From an uncultured Candidatus Saccharibacteria bacterium (GTDB taxonomy: Bacteria; Patescibacteriota; Saccharimonadia; Saccharimonadales; UBA10212): 64,000 bases of DNA. The stretch covers positions 363 to 64,362 of the forward strand of contig CAZUXR010000002.1 of the NCBI GenBank assembly GCA_964624785.1, written 5' to 3'. Each line of letters begins with the position of its first letter. Within the stretch, counting starts at the first letter, position 1. This document shows, one piece after another, positions 6,790 through 64,000 of this stretch. A program made the position numbers and the translations under genes. The notes beneath the pieces are model-generated. The model made no database searches. It saw only the letters and a program-made list of their open reading frames with translations, and was not told where the DNA came from.

Positions 6790-8952
6790 ATGATGGATTT
6801 AGAGGGTGCAAACCAATATACAGCGTTATTTGAAGGGTTAAATCCCGAACAAAAACGCGCTGTGCAGACAACGGAAGGACCGCTATTGATATTGGCGGGC
6901 GCTGGTAGCGGCAAAACCAAAACTCTAACTCACCGCATCGCTTATTTGCTGGCTACAAAAAAAGCTACGCCTTACAATATTTTGGCCGTAACTTTTACCA
7001 ACAAAGCTGCTGGAGAAATGCGCGAACGCGTTGCTAAACTAACCGGCCATAGCGCCGCCAGCCGTGGATTTATGCCGTTTATGGGCACCTTTCACTCCAT
7101 TTGCGTGCGACTGCTTAGGCAAGATGGCCAAGCGGTGGGGATTCCGCACAACTTTGTGATTTGGGATGAGGGCGACCGGACCGCCGCCGTAAGACAGGCC
7201 AGCAAAAAAGCCGGGATCAACGAAAAGACTTTCCCGCCGCGCATGATCGGGAGTTTAATTAGCAGTGCAAAAAACGCTATGGTTAGTCCTAGTGAGTATG
7301 CTTCCACGGCAAACAGCCCAGCTGCTAACGCTGTTGCCAAGGTTTACCCAATCTACGAAGCCAGTTTGCGCGAATGTTCGGCGCTGGATTTTGACGACCT
7401 AATTAGCCGTATGGTTGATCTACTAAAGGGCCAAAAAGAAATCAGACAGAAATGGCAGGACCAATTTAAGTATGTAATGATTGATGAATACCAAGACACT
7501 AACGCCGCGCAGTACGCTCTGGTCAAATTACTTACCAACAACCAGCGCAATATCGCCGTAGTAGGCGACGATTGGCAGAGCATTTACAGCTGGCGCGGAG
7601 CGGATTTTCGCAATATCTTGAACTTTGAGAAAGATTATCCGGATTGCCAAACTATTAAACTAGAACAAAATTATCGCAGCACAAAAAATATTCTTCGTGC
7701 TGCGCATAACGTTATAACTCGCAACGAAAAACGCAGTGACAAAAAATTATGGACGGCCAGCGCGGATGGTTCGCTCGTGCAAGTTGTGTCCGCTGCCAGC
7801 GAACGATCAGAGGCCGAGACAATCGCCCGGCACCTGCAAAGCCATGTCGACATCGGCGCCCGCGCCTACAAAGATTTTGCGATTTTGTACCGCACTAACG
7901 CCCAAAGCCGTGCAATCGAAGAGGTTCTAATTAACTACGCTATTCCGTACCGTATTGTCGGCGGAGTGCGCTTTTACGATCGCAAAGAAGTCAAGGATTT
8001 GGTGGCGTACTTGCGTTTAATTTACCAGCCAGAAGATTACGCCAGTTTTGAGCGAATTGTTAATGTACCAACTCGCGGGGTGGGGACGCGCTCGGTTCAA
8101 GTTTTTAATTCGTGGCGCGAAGCTAACGGATATAGTTTGAACGAAGCGCTGGGCAAAGTCGGCGCTTGCGGCGACATAACTCCCAAAGCTCGCACGGGAC
8201 TGGCCCAAATTGCCGATATTGTAAATACTTTCCATGAACAGATGGAAGACCTAACTCCCGCGGCACTGATCGACACATTAATTCGCCGCCTGGACTATCA
8301 AAAGTATCTGCAAGACGGATCGGTCCAGGGCGAAGCCCGCGTAGAAAACGTCCGCGAACTTTTGAGTGTTGCCGGGCAATATCAGGATTTAGGCCTATCT
8401 GGATTCTTAGAAGAAGTTTCGTTAATTAGCGACTTAGACAAAGCAGATCTAAATGCCAATTCTGTAACCTTAATGACATTGCATGCCGCCAAAGGCCTAG
8501 AATTCCCCGTCGTATTCATTACTGGGCTGGAAGAGACGGTATTCCCACACAGCCGCGCCCTGTACGACGCCGCAGAGATGGAAGAAGAGCGCCGTTTAAT
8601 GTATGTTGGCATGACTCGTGCCCGGGAAGAGCTATATTTACTGCACGCCGTACAACGAATGCTCTATGGCGGCCGCTTGGCCAATCCGCCCAGCCGTTTT
8701 TTGGCCGACATCGGGCCAGAAGCCAGTATGGCGGGATCACCAGCTTACGGTTTGTCGTCGGCTACCACGCCCAAATTCGCTAGCAATGAGCCACGCTACA
8801 TCCCGGAACTAGCCGAAGGTGACGGAGTAAAACACAATATTTTTGGTATAGGTACAATATTGGAACTAAGCGGAGATATCGCCACAATTTATTTTAAGGG
8901 CAAAGGAACTAAAAAGTTGGATATAGGCTTCGCCCCCTTAGAAAAACTATAA
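6790..8952 (+). CDS. pcrA: ATP-dependent DNA helicase, UvrD/PcrA family
   Basis: Walker A GAGSGKTKTLTHR, the DEYQDTN motif, and a UvrD C-terminal region (VGMTRAREELYL). Confidence 0.9.
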   Translation: MMDLEGANQYTALFEGLNPEQKRAVQTTEGPLLILAGAGSGKTKTLTHRIAYLLATKKATPYNILAVTFTNKAAGEMRERVAKLTGHSAASRGFMPFMGTFHSICVRLLRQDGQAVGIPHNFVIWDEGDRTAAVRQASKKAGINEKTFPPRMIGSLISSAKNAMVSPSEYASTANSPAANAVAKVYPIYEASLRECSALDFDDLISRMVDLLKGQKEIRQKWQDQFKYVMIDEYQDTNAAQYALVKLLTNNQRNIAVVGDDWQSIYSWRGADFRNILNFEKDYPDCQTIKLEQNYRSTKNILRAAHNVITRNEKRSDKKLWTASADGSLVQVVSAASERSEAETIARHLQSHVDIGARAYKDFAILYRTNAQSRAIEEVLINYAIPYRIVGGVRFYDRKEVKDLVAYLRLIYQPEDYASFERIVNVPTRGVGTRSVQVFNSWREANGYSLNEALGKVGACGDITPKARTGLAQIADIVNTFHEQMEDLTPAALIDTLIRRLDYQKYLQDGSVQGEARVENVRELLSVAGQYQDLGLSGFLEEVSLISDLDKADLNANSVTLMTLHAAKGLEFPVVFITGLEETVFPHSRALYDAAEMEEERRLMYVGMTRAREELYLLHAVQRMLYGGRLANPPSRFLADIGPEASMAGSPAYGLSSATTPKFASNEPRYIPELAEGDGVKHNIFGIGTILELSGDIATIYFKGKGTKKLDIGFAPLEKL

Positions 8953-8976
8953 AAATGGTATAATTAGAACTGTTAA

Positions 8977-10203
8977 ATGAGTTTGAAAAATACCAGTATC
9001 TTTAGCGGCTACCACCTTATAAAAGGTCACGGCGCACGACATATAAAAAAACGGCCTTACTTGTTGCCGGTTTTTGGCGCGTTGCTTGGGTTGGTTATTG
9101 TTGCCGGAGTTGTTTCGGCTAACGGCGGGCAAACTTATCAGGCGAATTCTTCCCATGTAGTTTTTTTGTACGATAAGGGTAAAAAGCAAACGCTGGACAC
9201 CAAAGCCAAAACGGTCGGCGAACTTATCAATAAACTAAACATGCATCTTATTCCGCAGGATGTTGTCGAGCCCTCGCGCGATAGCCAGATTGTAGAAGAT
9301 AACTTTAGGGTAAATATTTACCGCGCTAGGCCTGTAACTATTGTGGACGAGGGCGGCAATAAACAGGTTGCCGTAACAGCTCAAAAAAGCCCAAGAGTTG
9401 TTGCCCAAGATGCCGGGTTAAAGGTGTATCCAGAAGACACAGCCTCGTTTGCTCAAGGGTCTTTGCGCGATAATATTGTTGGCGAAAAAGTGGATATTGC
9501 GCGTTCTAAACCAATATTCTTTAATCTTTATGGCACGCCCGTAACGCTGCGTACTCAAGCCAAAACCGTGGCTGATCTGCTTAAAGAAAAGAACGTAAAA
9601 ATCGACAGTCAAGATCAAGTTCACCCCTTGCCAGACACACCTGTAATACCCAGCATGCAAATATTTGTTGTTCGTGCTGGTATGCAAATTGCCATGACCG
9701 AAGAGTCAGTGCCCCCACCAACCCAAACCGTACAAGACGCTAATCTGAGCTTGGGCGCCACCGCTACCCGCCAGACCGGAGCACCTGGGAAAAGAGTCGT
9801 AACTTACCAAGTGCAAAAAGATCCATCGGGCAAAGAAATAGGTCGTTCGATTATCCAAAATGTGGTCGTTCAAGAACCTGTGCCCAATATCATTGTTCGC
9901 GGCACACGAGTGCTGGTTAACGGTGATAAATCGTCATGGATGGCAGAAGCCGGAATTTCGGCCAGTGACTATGGTTATGTAAACTTTGTGATTAGTCACG
10001 AATCCAACTGGAATGTGGGCTCGCTGAACGGTAGCGGGTGTGCCGGGCTGGGGCAGGCTTGCCCGGGGTCTAAGTTAGCGGCCGCTTGCCCTGGCTGGCA
10101 AGGCAATCCAGTTTGTCAGCTTAAGTTCTTTAGCGGCTATTCAAGTAGGTATGGTGGTTGGGGTGGATCGTATAATTTTTGGCTCTCGCACCACTACTGG
10201 TAA
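8977..10203 (+). CDS. DUF348/G5-domain cell-wall protein with C-terminal Rpf/Sps-like transglycosylase-like domain (RpfB/YabE-like)
   Basis: An N-terminal TM is followed by repeated ~60-aa DUF348-like units (KTVGELINKLN..., KTVADLLKEKN...), a G5-like segment (TRQTGAPGKRVVTYQV) and a C-terminal ESNWN...NGSG...GLGQ...YGGWGGSYNFWLSHHYW region. A TATAAT box lies 12 nt upstream of the ATG. Confidence 0.55.
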   Translation: MSLKNTSIFSGYHLIKGHGARHIKKRPYLLPVFGALLGLVIVAGVVSANGGQTYQANSSHVVFLYDKGKKQTLDTKAKTVGELINKLNMHLIPQDVVEPSRDSQIVEDNFRVNIYRARPVTIVDEGGNKQVAVTAQKSPRVVAQDAGLKVYPEDTASFAQGSLRDNIVGEKVDIARSKPIFFNLYGTPVTLRTQAKTVADLLKEKNVKIDSQDQVHPLPDTPVIPSMQIFVVRAGMQIAMTEESVPPPTQTVQDANLSLGATATRQTGAPGKRVVTYQVQKDPSGKEIGRSIIQNVVVQEPVPNIIVRGTRVLVNGDKSSWMAEAGISASDYGYVNFVISHESNWNVGSLNGSGCAGLGQACPGSKLAAACPGWQGNPVCQLKFFSGYSSRYGGWGGSYNFWLSHHYW

Positions 10204-10208
10204 ACTCT

Positions 10209-10997
10209 ATGGCCATAGCAAAAAAATCTTTAGGGCAGCATTGGTTGAATGATCCAGCTAGTTTACAGGCGATGTGTAGCGCTGTTGAACTTAATAACCA
10301 AGACACGGTTTTAGAGATTGGTCCCGGCCTTGGTTCGCTCACAAAGTTTCTTGTTAGGGCCGCCAAACAAGTAATAGCAATTGAGCTGGATGAAGAATTA
10401 GGCAGCATATTGCCGCACATTATCGGTGCGGATAATTTAAAAGTTACTTCCGGCAACATACTAGAATTCAACTTGTCCGAGCTTCCTGCCGGCTATAAAG
10501 TCGTAGCCAACATTCCATATTACCTAACGGGTAAAATTCTGCGCATGTTTGCGGACGCCCATAATCAGCCAGCAATAATTGCGCTCTTGGTCCAAAAGGA
10601 AGTCGCCCAGCGGATCGCTGCAGGCGCGGATCAGATGAGCATATTAAGCGTGGCCGTTCAGCTTCATTACGAAGTTAGGCTAGATAAACTAGTACTGGCA
10701 AAACTATTTAGCCCACCGCCAAAAGTTGATTCTCAAATTATCGTTCTAAGCCAAAGACTCCAACCATTGTTCGATGATATTGATGTAGCTATATATATGC
10801 GGCTAGTCAAAGCGGGTTTTAGCTCTCCGCGCAAAAAGCTGCGCAGTTCGCTAAGCGCCGGCCTTGGAATAGATAAATCTCAGGCCGAGCAGCTGCTGGG
10901 CAAAGCCGGAATTAGCCCGGACGATCGAGCACAAAACTTATCGGTTAGTGATTGGTATAGCCTTTATAAGGCGCACGGGTCGACTGATATAATTTAG
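10209..10997 (+). CDS. rsmA: 16S rRNA (adenine1518/1519-N6)-dimethyltransferase
   Basis: KKSLGQHWL, LEIGPGLGSLT and NIPY motifs. ATG 10209 is chosen so the gene does not overlap the upstream gene, which ends at 10203. Confidence 0.9.
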   Translation: MAIAKKSLGQHWLNDPASLQAMCSAVELNNQDTVLEIGPGLGSLTKFLVRAAKQVIAIELDEELGSILPHIIGADNLKVTSGNILEFNLSELPAGYKVVANIPYYLTGKILRMFADAHNQPAIIALLVQKEVAQRIAAGADQMSILSVAVQLHYEVRLDKLVLAKLFSPPPKVDSQIIVLSQRLQPLFDDIDVAIYMRLVKAGFSSPRKKLRSSLSAGLGIDKSQAEQLLGKAGISPDDRAQNLSVSDWYSLYKAHGSTDII

Positions 10998-10999
10998 GT

Positions 11000-11440
11000 A
11001 TGGAAATAAGTGCAAGTGCCGGGGGTATAATTGTTAGCCCAAAAGGACTGATTGCCGTTACTAATCAAGACGGAGTAAGTTGGTCGCTGCCAAAAGGTCG
11101 CTTAGAGGTTGGTGAAGATGAGCTAACCGCAGCTAAACGCGAAATTCTGGAAGAAACAGGGATTGAGCAGGTAATTCTTATAAAAAAGCTTGGCACCTAC
11201 GAACGTTATAAAATCGGCAAGGGCGGCAAAGGTGAAAACAAAACTATTAAAAAAATAATTACGCTATTTCTTTTTACGACTGACCAGGAAAAATTAGAAC
11301 CCCAAGATCCAGACAACCCCGAAGCCCGGTGGGTGAGTCCGGATAAAGTAACAGAATTTTTAACGCACCAAGCAGACAAAGATTTTTATAACAGCAAATT
11401 ACCAGAAGTTGCCAGATTAATCAAAGCACGTAGGCTGTGA
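11000..11440 (+). CDS. NUDIX hydrolase
   Basis: Nudix box GRLEVGEDELTAAKREILEETGI. Confidence 0.85.
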   Translation: MEISASAGGIIVSPKGLIAVTNQDGVSWSLPKGRLEVGEDELTAAKREILEETGIEQVILIKKLGTYERYKIGKGGKGENKTIKKIITLFLFTTDQEKLEPQDPDNPEARWVSPDKVTEFLTHQADKDFYNSKLPEVARLIKARRL

Positions 11441-11441
11441 T

Positions 11442-11462
11442 GTGCGAGGCCAGGCCTCACAC
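11442..11462. repeat. REP-like palindromic repeat GTGCGAGGCCAGGCCTCACAC (copy 1, intergenic)
   Basis: The same ~21-bp palindrome (core GTGAGGCC/GGCCTCAC) recurs at 50020, 50068 and 52518. Confidence 0.7.
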
Positions 11463-11564
11463 AAAAAAAGAGGGTTAGCTTGGTCTTATGGTATAATATA
11501 CTTAGTTTGATAATTACAATGGTTCATCCGCCGGAAGTGGCTGCAAGAAAATGCAGGGTTTCCG

Positions 11565-11971
11565 GGGGCTGAATTTTAAGCTCGACGTTGGACTTTAACA
11601 ACTTTGCATGGCAGGCCGGGTTGATCTGCACGTTAGCCGGATCAAAAAGATAGTTGCAAAAACTCTATCTCAGCGTGTAAACGCTGCTGCTGCGAACTTG
11701 TTTGCGGCATGTAGCTTTGCACCAACAGCGGCTTAAGTTATATAGGTTGCCGCTGCTCGATCGACACCAGATGAGTCGAAGTAGCGCCATATTATCTGGT
11801 TGCAGGTCTAGGAGTTTATCCGCTCTTGGGCTCTAAGATTTTAGGGTTGCGGAAATCACGCTTTTTGTTTGTTTAACAGCATGGTTACCAAAGATTTTTA
11901 AACAGACTAAGCCTGTAGTCATTAAGGAAGTTAACCGACGGACGCGGGGGAAGTATCCGCCAGCTCCACCA
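11565..11971 (+). ncRNA. ssrA: tmRNA (transfer-messenger RNA)
   Basis: The 5' end GGGGCUGAAUUUUAAGCUCGACG and 3' end GGACGCGGG...CCGCCAGCUCCACCA closely match the E. coli tmRNA acceptor and T-arm, including the G3:U pair. An internal tag frame starts at GCA 11656 (preceded by AAAAAGAUAGUU, as in E. coli AAAAAAUAGUC-GCA) and ends ...FAPTAA at TAA 11734-11736. The T-loop (GGAAGUA) is non-canonical. Confidence 0.8.
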
Positions 11972-12003
11972 AAAAAACACCAATTTGTTTTGGTGTTTTT
12001 TTG
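11972..12003 (+). terminator. Rho-independent terminator of ssrA
   Basis: AACACCAA / TTGGTGTT stem followed by a T7 run. Confidence 0.6.
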
Positions 12004-12161
12004 ATTTCTTTAGCTTTTGCAACAGATAGTTATGTAAGATTTTACTCTTGACTTATGGGAAAGCATATGGTAAAGTTAGAATCAAGAATGCTTTAGTGTT
12101 CTAAGGTCGCACTCCTAACGAGTGCGAGCACATCCCCAACTAGAAAAGTGGTGAAAACGCG

Positions 12162-12542
12162 ATGGAATATCCTCGCCGCAACAGCGACCAGCGCTACACC
12201 CGCAAGGTGACCCTGCCGTCCGGGAAGATCATCGAGATCATCGAGGACACCCCGACAACGGCGGCAGACCTGCACGTCTGCCCCGAGTGTCACTCTGAGC
12301 TCGTGTATCCCGTCGACTGGGACGAGGCCGGTCCCACCAGCTGGGAGGTTAGCCTCCGCTGCCCCAACTGCGAGTGGACGCTCACCGGGATATTCGACGA
12401 GGAATCCATCCAGCGCTTCGACGACATCCTCGACGCCGGCACCGAGGAGCTCGTCGCGCTCGATCGGGCGAACATGGGTAGGGACGTCGGGCTCCTCATC
12501 TCAGCGCTCAGCTGCGACCACCTCCTCCCCGAGGACTTCTAG
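12162..12542 (+). CDS. Hypothetical Zn-ribbon protein encoded in an anomalously GC-rich segment
   Basis: GC-rich codon usage (GCC/GAG/CGC/CTC), unlike its flanks. The protein has a CPECH...CPNC four-Cys motif. The gene sits directly 3' of ssrA and is followed by a hairpin terminator. Confidence 0.5.
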   Translation: MEYPRRNSDQRYTRKVTLPSGKIIEIIEDTPTTAADLHVCPECHSELVYPVDWDEAGPTSWEVSLRCPNCEWTLTGIFDEESIQRFDDILDAGTEELVALDRANMGRDVGLLISALSCDHLLPEDF

Positions 12543-12580
12543 GTCGCCCGCCACCAATGCCCAACCACAATAGGGGATCG

Positions 12581-12639
12581 CCCCCGGAAAGAAGCTAGAG
12601 CTATAACAGCTCGCTACCTCCGGGGGCTTCTTTCTTTTT
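12581..12639 (+). terminator. Hairpin plus T-rich tract downstream of the GC-rich ORF
   Basis: CCCCCGGA...TCCGGGGG stem with an inner GAAAGAAGC/GCTTCTTTC pairing, followed by CTTCTTTCTTTTT. Confidence 0.4.
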
Positions 12640-12651
12640 AAAACCTAAATT

Positions 12652-13515
12652 TTAATGAATCCAAAAATAAACAGACAGCACAAAACCGGCGCTTAGGCAG
12701 TAAATTGCGAAAGGCTTTAGAGTGTTGGTCTGGAAGAATTTAAGCAAAAAGCGGATTGATAAATACGCGGTAACGGCTGCACACAATGCGCCAACTAACG
12801 CTGCTGTGCGCAAATCTGCTGCTTCTGGCTTAAATAACCCCGGCAGTTTAAGCAGTGCTGCCGCGCCAATGATTGGTGTAGCCAGCAAAAAGCTGAATCG
12901 GGCGGCGTTTTCGTTATTAAGTCCCGCTAGCAAACCACCAGCCATAGAAGAACCGGAGCGCGATATTCCTGGAATTAATGCGGCGGCTTGGGCGGTGCCA
13001 ACTAGCGCAGCTTTGCGCCACCCGAGTTTTGAAATTTCTTTGTCGCTACTAGCAGCATCTAGCTTGCCCCGGCTATTATTGCGTCGTAGGGCCTCTGCGC
13101 CCAGTAGAATAAATCCATTGATAAACAAAAATATGGCCGCGCCCTGAGCCGATGAAAATAGCGTTCGTAGTTTATGTTCTAGTCCTAGCCCAATAATTCC
13201 AGCTGGAATAGAACCAACAACAAGTAACCAGCCTAGTTTGGCGTAGGTGTCATCTGCTTTAATACGGCGAGAAACTGCAGATCTAACCAGACCCTGAATG
13301 ATCTTTAGCCAGTCTTTCCAAAAGAACAAAAACAAAACGATGGCGGTAGCCAGGTGGGTGGCAACTAAGAAAGTTAAAAAGTTGGAGTCGTTTTGCTGGA
13401 TGTTCCAGCCAACAAGCTTGGGGAAAATAACGCTGTGGCCCAAGCTAGAAATAGGGAATAGTTCGCTCACCCCTTGCAGGAGCCCTAATATTATCGCTTG
13501 AAAAATCGATATCAT
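12652..13515 (-). CDS. uppP: Undecaprenyl-diphosphate phosphatase
   Basis: BacA/UppP family: SELFPISSLGHS, an eight-TM protein, and the PGISRSG motif. Confidence 0.9.
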   Translation of the reverse strand: MISIFQAIILGLLQGVSELFPISSLGHSVIFPKLVGWNIQQNDSNFLTFLVATHLATAIVLFLFFWKDWLKIIQGLVRSAVSRRIKADDTYAKLGWLLVVGSIPAGIIGLGLEHKLRTLFSSAQGAAIFLFINGFILLGAEALRRNNSRGKLDAASSDKEISKLGWRKAALVGTAQAAALIPGISRSGSSMAGGLLAGLNNENAARFSFLLATPIIGAAALLKLPGLFKPEAADLRTAALVGALCAAVTAYLSIRFLLKFFQTNTLKPFAIYCLSAGFVLSVYFWIH

Positions 13516-13557
13516 TTATGCTTAGCATAGCATACGTTTTTTACAGCAAAAAAAGTA

Positions 13558-13586
13558 TTGATTTTAGGGAGGACAAAGAGTATAAA
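13558..13586 (+). promoter_or_regulatory. Sigma70-like promoter (TTGATT-17-TATAAA) with no annotated gene downstream
   Basis: TTGATT (13558-63), a 17-nt spacer, and TATAAA (13581-86). It faces away from uppP. Confidence 0.35.
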
Positions 13587-13703
13587 ATTAACTATGGTCG
13601 CAAAGCGTATTACAATCTGCCCAATTATGCTCACTCAAGTGAGCTAGTTGCAGTTGTTTGTAAATACGTTTTAAACCAGAATTAAACCAAGAAAACTTAC
13701 AAA

Positions 13704-13738
13704 AGGACTGCAAATCAAACTGCGGTCCTTTTTCTTTG
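13704..13738 (+). terminator. Rho-independent terminator ending a ~145-nt orphan transcript
   Basis: AGGACUGCA / UGCGGUCCU 9-bp stem (one G-U pair), an 8-nt loop, then UUUUUCUUU. Confidence 0.45.
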
Positions 13739-13990
13739 CCACCCGGCCAGTAGACTTTTACTAAAAAAGTTTAGCGGCGGGGCGGTTGCGAAGGTGTCCT
13801 GTATGGCGAAAGCATATCGCTGTATGGGGAACCCTTGGTAAACGTCCCGACCATTTTCGTCTCTTGCGACCTGTGGCTAATCAGGCAGCAAGAGTTAACA
13901 ATTAGGGAGAAGAAAAGCAGCAAAGAAGGCAGTCCCAGAAGTAAAATTCCTGGCGTCAGTGCCCATCTATCATCAAAGGAGAATGTAGCT

Positions 13991-14257
13991 GTGAGCTCGT
14001 TGGTACTCGAAGTAAGCACCGAGGTGGACTTGAAGCGGCAATTGAGGCGTTGTCTAAAGACAGGCGACACTGATGGCGTACTCGGTCTTGCTGGCGCCTA
14101 TGTCGGCTTCTGTACTTCTGAGTCGGAGCACAGAATGTTTCTGCGTAGCATGCGAAAAGTGATATACGATCTTGGGCTTGAGCGCGAGGCCAGAGAGGAA
14201 CTGCTACGGCATTTGTACAGCATGTCGAGCTACGAGGAGTTCTTCCCGGGTGTATGA
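13991..14257 (+). CDS. Hypothetical small protein in a GC-elevated patch
   Basis: GTG 13991 is preceded by AAAGGAGAA at 6-nt spacing; the track ORF 13835..14257 is in the same frame. Product not recognised. Confidence 0.3.
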   Translation: MSSLVLEVSTEVDLKRQLRRCLKTGDTDGVLGLAGAYVGFCTSESEHRMFLRSMRKVIYDLGLEREAREELLRHLYSMSSYEEFFPGV

Positions 14258-14490
14258 CGATAATCTTTCCAAGGAGGGCTGTGCGGTCTGCGAGATCCGC
14301 GGGCTACATTAGTAAGTGCGGCTGGGGGAGATCCCCCCAGCCGCCCCGTCGGGATTACCGCCAGCCTTTGCGGGAATTAGCGCTTTTATAGCTCACCCTA
14401 GCGATAATATCGCTCGGGAGGCTTTTTAAGCATAAAACCGTTACTAATCTTTATCTTCTCCCTCTCTCAACTTTTGATACAATTAAACCA

Positions 14491-14658
14491 ATGAACAAAA
14501 GCCTAATGTATTTAATGATATTCGTAGGCGGAGCAATAGGTTCTTATCTGCCCGTTCTACTTGGTCAGAGTGCGTTTTCGCTAGCTAGTATTATGGGCGG
14601 ATTTATCGGCAGTATTGCAGGTGTTTGGGCGGCTTATAGAATAAATAGTTCAATTTAG
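14491..14658 (+). CDS. Small two-TM membrane protein, GlsB/YeaQ/YmgE-like (Gly-zipper)
   Basis: 55 aa: MNKSLMYLMIFVGGAIGSYLPVLLGQSAFSLASIMGGFIGSIAGVWAAYRINSSI. Not in the ORF track because it is under 60 aa. Confidence 0.45.
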   Translation: MNKSLMYLMIFVGGAIGSYLPVLLGQSAFSLASIMGGFIGSIAGVWAAYRINSSI

Positions 14659-14708
14659 ATCGTTTGATCTATTGACTGGTCCCTGCTTTGTAGCATAGGC
14701 TGGAGCTT

Positions 14709-15983
14709 ATGGTTATCGCAAAAGTCAAAGACTTAAAAGACAAAATTCTATTAAAGGGCCGGCATGATATTTTGACTGCTCATGATGTGCAAACTGCCCG
14801 TAATTATATAGATGGTTATTGGGCTAAGTTGACTCGCAATCACCCCAAGGACGATGACAGTTTGCTGGGTTTGCCGCACCCATATTTGGTACCTGCTCAC
14901 GAAGAAGGCCACGAATTTGACTTTAACGAACTCTATTATTGGGATAGTTATTTTATGGTCCAGGGAATGCTCAAAGACAAAAGACAAAAAGAGTTAGTTG
15001 TTGGCATCTTGGAAAATCTACTAAGTCTTTATGCGCGGTTCAAAATTATTCCTAACGCCTCACGCACGTATTTAACCGGACGGTCGCAGCCACCGCTATT
15101 AACTACTTTTATCCTAGATGTCTACAAGGCTTATGATATGGACAAGAAGTGGTTGAACGAGCACATAGACATTGCTAAAGACGAATATCAGCGCGTCTGG
15201 ATGGGGACTCGCAAACCAAATGTTCGCCAAGTTTACGAAGGTTTAAGTCGTTATTACGATATTAATCACTTGAACGATCTAGCAGAGGCCGAAAGCGGCT
15301 GGGATCACACGACTCGTTTTAACCGCAAATGCCTAAACTACTTACCGGTGGATTTAAATGCGTTGTTGTTTAAGTACGAAATGGATTTTGCGCAGGTCGC
15401 TTTACTGCTTGGTAAAAAAGAAGAAGCCGCCGAGTGGGAAGAAGCCGCACGCTGGCGTCAAGTTACGATGAATAAGCTGATGTGGAGTGATTTTAAAGGC
15501 CTGTATTACGACTACAATTACGCCAAAAAACAGCGAGGCAGCGTGGATTCTTTGGCCGCATACTTTCCGATGTGGGCAGGAATGGTTACCGAAAAACAAG
15601 CCGCCCAGCTAGTGAGTTCGCTGCGAAGATTCGAAGAAAAGGGAGGGCTCGTCACGACAAACTCTACAGCGTTAAGCCAGCTAACACCAAGTCCGATTCC
15701 CGCACAGTGGGCGCATCCGAACGGTTGGGCTCCTTTGCAGTTCATTGCTGTCAAGGGCTTGCAGCGTTATGGCTACCATGACGATGCCCGCCGAATTGCC
15801 CACAAATGGCTTAAATGCAACCTGGACTGGTTTAATGAGCACGGTGTATTTTTGGAAAAGTATAACGTAGTGGCCCCGGATAAACCGCCCGCAAAAGGCG
15901 TTTATCCGTCGCAAGTCGGCTTTGGTTGGACGAACGCAGTTTTTGAAAAACTTTGCCAAGATTTTATAGACCATAAAGGATAG
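14709..15983 (+). CDS. Alpha,alpha-trehalase (GH37), cytoplasmic form
   Basis: Trehalase signature 1 FNELYYWDSYF and signature 2 QWAHPNGWAPLQ. No signal peptide. Confidence 0.85.
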   Translation: MVIAKVKDLKDKILLKGRHDILTAHDVQTARNYIDGYWAKLTRNHPKDDDSLLGLPHPYLVPAHEEGHEFDFNELYYWDSYFMVQGMLKDKRQKELVVGILENLLSLYARFKIIPNASRTYLTGRSQPPLLTTFILDVYKAYDMDKKWLNEHIDIAKDEYQRVWMGTRKPNVRQVYEGLSRYYDINHLNDLAEAESGWDHTTRFNRKCLNYLPVDLNALLFKYEMDFAQVALLLGKKEEAAEWEEAARWRQVTMNKLMWSDFKGLYYDYNYAKKQRGSVDSLAAYFPMWAGMVTEKQAAQLVSSLRRFEEKGGLVTTNSTALSQLTPSPIPAQWAHPNGWAPLQFIAVKGLQRYGYHDDARRIAHKWLKCNLDWFNEHGVFLEKYNVVAPDKPPAKGVYPSQVGFGWTNAVFEKLCQDFIDHKG

Positions 15984-15989
15984 ACTGGA

Positions 15990-16517
15990 ATGGCATTAAT
16001 AAGTTGCGGGATTTTGCTTTATAAGAAAGCAGGTGATGAAGTCGAAGTTTTACTAGTTCATCCTGGTGGTCCTTTTTGGGCTAAAAAGGATTTGGGTGCT
16101 TGGTCATTGCCAAAAGGAGAGAGCGAACAGGGCGAAGACTATCTGAACGCTGCAAAGCGTGAGTTCCAAGAAGAACTGGGTTTTGCCGCACCCGCCGGCG
16201 AGTATCAGGAGCTTGGCGAAACCAAGCTGAATAGCGGCAAAGTTATACATGTTTGGGCGATCAAAGGGGACTTGGACGCCAGTAAAATTACGAGCAATAA
16301 AATTCAAATAGACTGGCCACCCAAAAGCGGTAAAAAAATAGAAATCCCAGAAGTGGACCGGGCGGAGTGGGTAAACATAAATAATGCAATTCCAAAAATG
16401 CATAAAGGACAGGGGGTGTTCGTTGAACGCCTAGCCGGCAAACTGGACATTATTCTAGAAGGATCAAAAGACACGACGACAACGGGGGTCCTTAAAACCC
16501 AACAAACACTCTTCTAA
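15990..16517 (+). CDS. NUDIX hydrolase
   Basis: Nudix box GESEQGEDYLNAAKREFQEELGF. Confidence 0.85.
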   Translation: MALISCGILLYKKAGDEVEVLLVHPGGPFWAKKDLGAWSLPKGESEQGEDYLNAAKREFQEELGFAAPAGEYQELGETKLNSGKVIHVWAIKGDLDASKITSNKIQIDWPPKSGKKIEIPEVDRAEWVNINNAIPKMHKGQGVFVERLAGKLDIILEGSKDTTTTGVLKTQQTLF

Positions 16518-63513: not shown

Positions 63514-63668
63514 AATTTATAGGTTATTAAAAAACATATAGTGACTATTGACAAATTACTCCTCCTCCTCCTCCTCTAGTATTTGTAACTAGCCCTGTGG
63601 GCTGGACCTGATATTTAGTCCAGCTAAGTACCGGAGCAGGAACATATCCTAGCAGGAGGTAGTTACAA

Positions 63669-64000
63669 GTGGCACGACAGCCCAAGAAGTTTGTGCGCGG
63701 ACCTGACAATCGAATGATCGCGGCCGGATCGGATCCTCGCGATTGGAAGCGGCCGATGACGGAGGACGCTGTTCGCGTGCTGGAGTACATCAACGAGCGG
63801 CACGGAGGCTGTCCGTTCACCGCCAACCGCAAGTGGCAGCTGGTGGCGGCGCAGCGTCTGCTGCTCGGTCCCGACTTCGTGGAGGGAGCCGATATGGAGG
63901 TGGTGGAGGAGGCGAAGCGCAAGGCGACGCGCCAGGCGCTGACCGTCCTCTTCGAGAACGGTCGCCTGTACCCCGTGTACAGCAAGACGGTGTCGGTCAC
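63669..64000 (+). CDS. Hypothetical protein (partial, 3' end beyond window) in GC-rich, foreign-looking DNA
   Basis: A strong SD AGGAGGT (63654-60) lies 8 nt before GTG 63669. The frame stays open to the window end with GC-rich codons (VARQPKKFVRGPDNRMIAAGSDPRDWKRPMTEDAVRVLEYINERHGG...). The listed minus ORF 63545..64000 is a high-GC shadow. Confidence 0.45.
   Translation, partial: MARQPKKFVRGPDNRMIAAGSDPRDWKRPMTEDAVRVLEYINERHGGCPFTANRKWQLVAAQRLLLGPDFVEGADMEVVEEAKRKATRQALTVLFENGRLYPVYSKTVSV

Follow-up and report, generated by a model that had tools for sequence, protein, structure and literature searches.

The stretch of DNA analyzed here, 64,000 nucleotides (64 kb) in length and called the window throughout, carries on its plus strand a short open reading frame (ORF) for a 126-amino-acid zinc-ribbon protein, located between the gene for transfer-messenger RNA (tmRNA; ssrA) and uppP (Table 1). 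An earlier note had described this GC-rich, four-cysteine ORF 3' of the ssrA terminator, with an AT-rich promoter region ahead of it and a G/C-rich hairpin behind it, and had suggested that it is foreign DNA of high-GC actinobacterial origin acquired at an integration hotspot. Every element described was found where it had been placed, and the observation was confirmed in every detail. The suggested origin is probably correct; the hotspot was not supported by our analysis.

The ORF has a GC content of 64.3% (62, 43, and 88% at codon positions 1, 2, and 3, respectively), compared to 46.4% for the window. In sliding windows of 381 nt (mean 46.3%, standard deviation 3.7%), the window-wide maximum of 65.9% fell on the zinc-ribbon ORF, approximately 5 standard deviations above the mean. 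GC content at third codon positions (GC3) was 0.88 for the ORF and 0.466 ± 0.075 for 56 long ORFs, a difference of approximately 5.5 standard deviations. The codon usage had been noted as unlike that of the rest of the window, and the ORF is indeed the strongest compositional outlier of the 64 kb.

The ORF starts approximately 190 nt 3' of the tmRNA end. The tmRNA was missed by ARAGORN at this position, though it is found by Rfam, and its predicted tag reading frame ends in ...FAPTAA followed by a stop codon. Within the AT-rich spacer behind the ssrA terminator is a TG-extended, promoter-like site, TTGACT-17-TAAAGT, at 12048-12076, and a Shine-Dalgarno-like GGTGA lies 9 nt ahead of the ATG. 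Downstream of the ORF, a 9-bp G/C stem at 12580-12627 is followed by UUCUUUCUUUUU. The leader and the 3' region matched no known RNA family when scanned against Rfam by E-value. The zinc-ribbon gene could be expressed, because it has the AT-rich promoter-like site on its 5' side and the hairpin terminator on its 3' side.

Homologues and family of the zinc-ribbon protein

We found 1323 homologues of the protein, approximately 135 amino acids long and none identical to the window copy, and examined the best 120 of these together with the best 80 of 409 genome matches in GTDB (one genome per species). The closest homologue among the matches listed had 73% amino acid identity (E = 4e-51). All named homologues among them came from metagenome-assembled genomes (MAGs) of Solirubrobacteraceae, a family represented here almost wholly by such genomes. 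Likewise, the best 80 GTDB matches were labeled Solirubrobacteraceae, Solirubrobacterales, Paraconexibacter, Thermoleophilia, or Actinomycetota.

The loci that carry these homologues (donor loci) had a mean GC content of 71%, and the gene itself had means of 66.0% GC and 88.5% GC3. The window copy is at donor composition and therefore has not been ameliorated. When compared by blastn to 80 donor loci, it had a best nucleotide identity of 77.5%, with a Solirubrobacteraceae MAG (L006). The regions upstream of the donor gene, conserved among donors, were not found in the window. Among the donors, it belongs to the syntenic chromosomal core and is transcribed divergently from tatC/tatA and towards a polyprenyl synthase gene; farther neighbors encode a UbiE-type methyltransferase, cytochrome b/c, a Rieske protein, and a class-III aminotransferase (read as HemL). 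A co-oriented "sigma factor" neighbor 3' of the donor gene was rejected as spurious antisense ORFs of crude gene calling.

In a tree of 121 proteins, made by neighbor joining (NJ) only and without support values, the window copy was sister to one homologue (P0001) inside a 16-member Solirubrobacteraceae-type clade that also held a Solirubrobacteraceae MAG protein. The phage collection had no match to the zinc-ribbon protein, and the plasmid collection had a single distant one (31%), on an 815-kb replicon of Miltoncostaea, which also belongs to the Thermoleophilia; therefore, no mobile vector was evident.

Searches of Pfam, NCBIfam, PADLOC, and PHROGs gave nothing above cut-off and generic zinc-ribbon matches only, and no PDB sequence was matched significantly in a profile search. 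For the family itself, a profile search recovered at least 1418 clusters (50% identity), most of them stand-alone proteins 105-150 amino acids long. An alignment of 59 sequences including the window copy had 36 invariant columns. Like the Solirubrobacterales zinc-ribbon/LPEDF family, the window copy has the four cysteines, W53, W61, and W72, the FD..LD.GTE motif, and LPEDF. Unlike that family, it has diverged at the near-invariant N-terminal MQEFE..PDH, lacks the SF dipeptide, has a deletion of the DLRx helix turn, carries E106G, R111L, and F112L, and has none of the donor synteny. Judged from these features, the window protein is a divergent member of the family.

The AlphaFold2 model (mean predicted local distance difference test score 72, core 86-90) predicted a low-confidence N-terminus, a three-stranded zinc ribbon at residues 49-79, and one long helix at residues 80-117, which is followed by the C-terminal acidic LPEDF tail. 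The sole structural neighbor found by Foldseek was the DNA-binding zinc ribbon of NrdR (42 residues, root-mean-square deviation approximately 1.5 Å, E = 0.04). The N-terminal zinc ribbon of NrdR resembles the predicted ribbon; however, the window protein has no ATP-cone by Pfam, carries a long single helix instead, and has no sequence match to NrdR. The match to this predicted model is one of fold resemblance and not of membership. With low confidence, we read the protein as a small zinc-ribbon adaptor whose helix and acidic tail would contact a binding partner, either a nucleic acid or another protein. Two family members stood out in other ways. The first (P0346) carries a fusion to sigma-70 regions 2-3-4, which could be real or a gene-calling run-on, and is a lead towards a transcription-factor partner and not evidence for one. 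In the other (P0243), from a lower-GC organism judging by amino acid composition, the whole zinc-ribbon/helix/LPEDF unit is tandemly duplicated.

The recipient genome and the slot beside uppP

The recipient genome is that of a Candidatus Saccharimonadales (TM7) bacterium, as shown by its named uppP homologues and its synteny with four JGI contigs (L002-L005). The window UppP had one 100% match, on an NCBI contig; its next-best matches were 64-73% identical, and the named ones came from Candidatus Saccharimonadales or Saccharibacteria. The four contigs, in which UppP is 72% identical, have the order UvrD-G5-RsmA-x-tmRNA-slot-uppP in common with the window, where the slot is the place between tmRNA and uppP; the other side of uppP is also syntenic (NUDIX-MetRS-TatD-aminotransferase). 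The tmRNA is 77% identical to that of L002 across 238 nt of its 5' part, and a second segment also aligned. The spacer between tmRNA and uppP measures 680 nt in the window compared to 282 nt in L002, and the AT-rich spacer at 12004-12103 has no counterpart in L002 or in the donor loci.

The slot is occupied in L002-L005 by a gene for a small, unannotated membrane protein of 77-86 amino acids and two helices, with the pattern MKK...YYW..A.SLPHWLPGYE..S..KHLKHG...LG.GCFIWAWFASG; in L002 it has 83 amino acids (MKKSYTPILIIIGVLF...WLPGYE...KHLKHG...CFIWAWFASG). The protein belongs to no Pfam family and had a weak match to DUF998 only (E = 0.003). Of the 45 loci searched, 22 have the small gene beside uppP, usually convergent with uppP and sometimes overlapping its 3' end, and one more homologue was found on a named Saccharimonadales contig of 813 kb. 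No copy of the small gene was present anywhere in the 64 kb of the window (tblastn, best E = 0.4), and tblastn found no zinc-ribbon gene in the 45 recipient-type loci. Since the small gene fills the slot in relatives and is missing in the window, the foreign gene would therefore have replaced a native gene, in the same orientation.

Adjacency of tmRNA and uppP was seen in the window and L002-L005 only. Most relatives of uppP have no neighboring tmRNA, and ssrA is therefore not a conserved landmark. Judged by gene order, the conserved landmark is uppP together with its small neighbor gene, and ssrA is incidental.

Table 1. Features between ssrA and uppP in the window, and the small membrane-protein gene in related loci
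Feature	Position	Strand	Evidence or description
tmRNA (ssrA), native	11565-11971	+	Rfam RF00023, 87.6 bits vs gathering score 47, full model covered
ssrA intrinsic terminator, native	11970-12003	+	14-bp stem and U-run; -17.6 kcal/mol, z = -5.6; conserved in L002
AT-rich spacer	12004-12103	+	28-33% GC in 40-nt windows until ~12080
GC-rich block, ~525 bp, probable extent of foreign DNA	12104-12628	+	GC profile, 40-nt windows
Leader hairpin, 8-bp G/C-rich stem GUCGCACUC/GAGUGCGA	12105-12129	+	RNA fold, z = -2.6 for leader
Zinc-ribbon ORF, 126 amino acids, Solirubrobacteraceae type	12162-12542	+	CPEC...CPNC; C40, C43, C67, C70
Sole stretch with nucleotide similarity to donor loci	12170-12556	+	blastn vs 80 donor loci
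Terminator-like hairpin	12580-12640	+	9-bp stem GCCCCCGGA/UCCGGGGGC, inner hairpin, U-rich tail; -33.7 kcal/mol, z = -3.1
uppP (undecaprenyl-diphosphatase, BacA)	12652-13515	-	Pfam PF02673; convergent with zinc-ribbon ORF
Small membrane-protein gene	L002 6836-7084	-	adjoins uppP
Small membrane-protein gene	L125 1460-1720	-	adjoins uppP
Small membrane-protein gene	L126 5865-6098	-	adjoins uppP
Small membrane-protein gene	L131 10855-11100	-	adjoins uppP

Taken together, the homologues, the nesting in the tree, the donor composition, and the absence of the gene at the same position in relatives point to a recent transfer of a single gene from a Solirubrobacteraceae-like actinobacterium into the chromosome of a soil Candidatus Saccharimonadales bacterium, to which we assign a probability of roughly 80%. 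The donor would have been a member of the Thermoleophilia with approximately 71% GC, and the recipient a TM7 bacterium with 46% GC. Approximately 0.5 kb of donor DNA, with one core donor gene, would have landed between ssrA and uppP and displaced the membrane-protein gene that relatives keep beside uppP. Entry was probably by DNA uptake from a host or neighbor and then illegitimate recombination, with no ssrA-specific integrase. The gene would now stand behind an AT-rich promoter-like site and ahead of a hairpin terminator, and the copy would be evolving in its new genome under strongly relaxed constraint.

A trehalase gene (14709-15983, plus strand; PF01204, E = 1e-89) of native composition lies between the NUDIX gene and uppP, and the syntenic region of L002 has no trehalase at that place. 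Trehalose is a typical actinobacterial sugar, and the trehalase may be relevant to an epibiont lifestyle.

State of the copy and competing explanations

The ORF is intact and keeps the four cysteines, the tryptophan residues, FD..LD.GTE, and the LPEDF tail. Even so, no other family member has diverged nearly as far. The terminal branch of the window copy in the NJ tree was 0.283 compared to a donor median of 0.049 and maximum of 0.163; it was changed at 18 of the 81 columns that are at least 90% conserved (donor median 1, maximum 7); and it had three private in-frame deletions of 9, 6, and 12 nt. The ratio of nonsynonymous to synonymous substitution rates (dN/dS) to the closest donor gene (L129) was 0.54. 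Donor pairs inside the clade were mostly at 0.16-0.35, and up to 0.51 for pairs involving one locus, L009. By three-taxon decomposition, the window branch had a dN of 0.17 and a dS of 0.23, or a ratio of approximately 0.76, compared to 0.15-0.18 for the two donor branches. Changes specific to the window copy numbered 15, 15, and 20 at codon positions 1, 2, and 3, with a mild GC-to-AT bias (18 vs 12). The long branch, the changed conserved columns, and the high dN/dS therefore suggest a recent arrival under strongly relaxed constraint, although a retained or altered function would be compatible with the in-frame indels and the preserved core. Our best guess is that the gene is a nearly neutral passenger, still intact, and not an established new function.

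Several points weigh against a recent single-gene transfer of this kind. The closest sampled donor has just 73% amino acid and 77.5% nucleotide identity, and the true donor lineage is therefore unsampled. The nearest relative of the recipient has approximately 72% uppP identity, so that the insertion cannot be dated and has no true empty site for comparison. It is composition that makes the transfer appear recent, and further Saccharimonadales copies may exist outside the best 80 of 409 genome and 120 of 1323 protein matches. By exact-product lookup, the ORF has no record as a called gene, while both neighboring genes of the same NCBI contig are recorded. Two Logan contigs (L123 and L124) stop at approximately 11594, short of the left junction at approximately 12100. 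Finally, the in-frame deletions and the four retained cysteines sit uneasily with a neutral passenger and argue for some remaining selection.

In another explanation, which we regard as unlikely, the transfer did take place and the gene has a function to which it is adapting. The epibiont would have retained the gene because it makes use of a copied host protein, for instance by interfering with a partner of the host's zinc-ribbon protein or by plugging into that partner. This would fit the intact ORF, the retained cysteines, zinc-ribbon core, and LPEDF tail, and the fact that all three window-specific indels are in frame (approximately 1/27 by chance). The promoter-like site, the Shine-Dalgarno-like GGTGA, and the terminator are all present, and the changes cluster in motifs (N-terminal MQEFE..PDH, SF, DLRx, and EEDVERF). 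Substitutions were depleted at conserved columns, with 8% at columns at least 99% conserved compared to approximately 65% at variable ones; however, that depletion may predate the transfer. The dN/dS of the window branch and the distribution of changes over codon positions are near neutral, and no second Saccharimonadales copy was found among the matches listed.

A decayed island targeted to ssrA would be far less probable. The foreign block is the first thing 3' of ssrA, and ssrA is a known target of tyrosine-integrase islands; an actinobacterial element bearing an integrase could have inserted at the ssrA 3' end and been reduced to one gene. Like islands targeted to ssrA or tRNA genes, the window has compositionally foreign DNA directly 3' of ssrA. 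It differs from them in that integrase and duplicated attachment (att) site are both missing, the ssrA 3' end is undisturbed, and the cargo is one core chromosomal donor gene. A partial duplication of the ssrA 3' end (attL/attR), for which the earlier note had advised a search, was not found: the 3' 20-mer has a single occurrence in the 64 kb, even when as many as 3 mismatches are tolerated, although a far side could lie beyond the window. A Pfam scan of the ORFs from 6790 to 16517 returned UvrD, G5, RsmA, NUDIX, BacA, trehalase, and NUDIX, and no recombinase. No break separates the 3' end of ssrA from its terminator, and both align with L002 until approximately 12010, and the foreign DNA begins approximately 130 nt beyond ssrA, being GC-rich from approximately 12104. 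Homology to donors does not extend beyond a single core chromosomal gene, with no more than the one distant plasmid match among mobile elements, and it is the uppP/small-gene pairing that is widespread, and not the adjacency to tmRNA. Since there is no integrase and no ssrA duplication and the terminator is intact, the reading of ssrA as a hotspot is unsupported, and the island is largely refuted.

A repeat scan of 11400-13000 returned short, chance-level repeats only. Two candidates for an att or target-site duplication, the AGGTCGC direct repeat at 12104 and 12541 and a 10- to 11-nt match to the tmRNA 5' end within the terminator, were rejected as being at chance level. An integron cassette was also rejected; there is no integrase, and no attC-like core sites were seen in the 3' region, as judged by eye and with no formal test.

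Least probable is an assembly or binning artefact, in which reads of an abundant Solirubrobacteraceae organism were mis-joined into a Saccharimonadales contig: the composition is exactly donor-like, the ORF is absent from the records of called genes, and Logan contigs end at 11594 and, within the ORF, at 12437, but a single contig has host-type DNA on both sides of a GC-rich block trimmed to a single ORF with its own promoter-like site and terminator, and an independent Logan assembly of SRR9179560 (L001) covers 12437-13517, from the ORF tail through the terminator and the junction into uppP, at 100% identity. The in-frame deletions and substitutions are private to the window copy and occur in none of the 120 homologues; a mis-join of donor reads would not create such changes, which argues against a chimera.

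The source organism is also present in run SRR9179559. The break at approximately 11594, in the 5' part of the tmRNA, occurs in the assemblies of both SRR9179559 and SRR9179560, and the break at 12437 is inside the GC-rich ORF. These breaks may reflect k-mers common to other tmRNAs and to co-occurring Solirubrobacteraceae genes.

A second GC-rich ORF was observed at the end of the window. It begins at 63669 on the plus strand, runs past the window end at 64000, has approximately 60% GC (vs 46%), and has a GTG start 9 nt after AGGAGG. It corresponds to a 139-amino-acid product (P0241) of the same NCBI contig that is an ORFan: 5.8 billion proteins included no homologue, and Pfam, PADLOC, PHROG, phage, and PDB searches gave no match; exact-product lookup returned no record. 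The upstream region (63545-63668) is AT-rich and contains a (TCC)n run, and approximately 70 nt of it are bracketed by the two arms of a 9-bp inverted repeat, TTGTAACTA/TAGTTACAA. Rfam gave no match.

Gene exchange and possible hosts

The UppP type of the window (59-73% identity) was found both in Saccharimonadales and in true high-GC Solirubrobacteraceae contigs. The high-GC copies (L130, L088, L089, L093, and L100) are 59-67% identical to the window UppP, and the one in a Solirubrobacteraceae MAG, L130, lies in DNA of 72.7% GC and has a uppP GC3 of 95%. The low-GC uppP loci in the comparison were L002, L086, L087, L094-L099, and L125-L127. The small membrane-protein gene stands beside uppP in L088, L089, L093, and L100, and not in L130. 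In an NJ tree, the high-GC UppP clades nest inside the low-GC Saccharimonadales radiation. These data suggest an older exchange of the uppP module, by now fully ameliorated, between Saccharimonadales and Solirubrobacteraceae.

In culture, Saccharibacteria live as epibionts on Actinobacteria, and transferred genes have served as clues to host identity (PMC11659515, PMC12102498); the hosts of soil Saccharimonadales are an open question (PMC11659515). As in the Actinobacteria-Saccharibacteria transfers of the literature, an actinobacterial gene is found here in a reduced Saccharimonadales genome, with donor composition and nesting in the tree. The differences are that the apparent donor is a soil Solirubrobacteraceae (Thermoleophilia), whereas the co-culture hosts of the literature are just "Actinobacteria," for example Actinomyces odontolyticus (PMC11659515, PMC12102498), and that the event in the window would be a single-gene replacement of approximately 0.5 kb with its composition unameliorated.

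An unameliorated donor gene, together with independent evidence for an exchange of the uppP module, leads to a specific host hypothesis: Solirubrobacteraceae could be the physical host of this soil Saccharimonadales lineage, with genes moving repeatedly between the two. We put this forward tentatively; the apparent uppP-module exchange between the same two lineages makes it more likely. In a bolder extension, the epibiont may hold on to a regulatory adaptor copied from its host as a means of interfering with that host.

Transfer between phyla into a Patescibacteria genome is a kind of event already known, and a single transferred hypothetical gene is unsurprising in itself. What would set this locus apart is its freshness, the replacement of a conserved native gene, and its possible use as a host marker. 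A large zinc-ribbon family that has no Pfam or NCBIfam model has also been brought to light. If the transfer occurred as proposed, the locus captures a very early phase of a foreign gene's residence in a reduced Patescibacteria genome, with donor composition intact and constraint relaxed.

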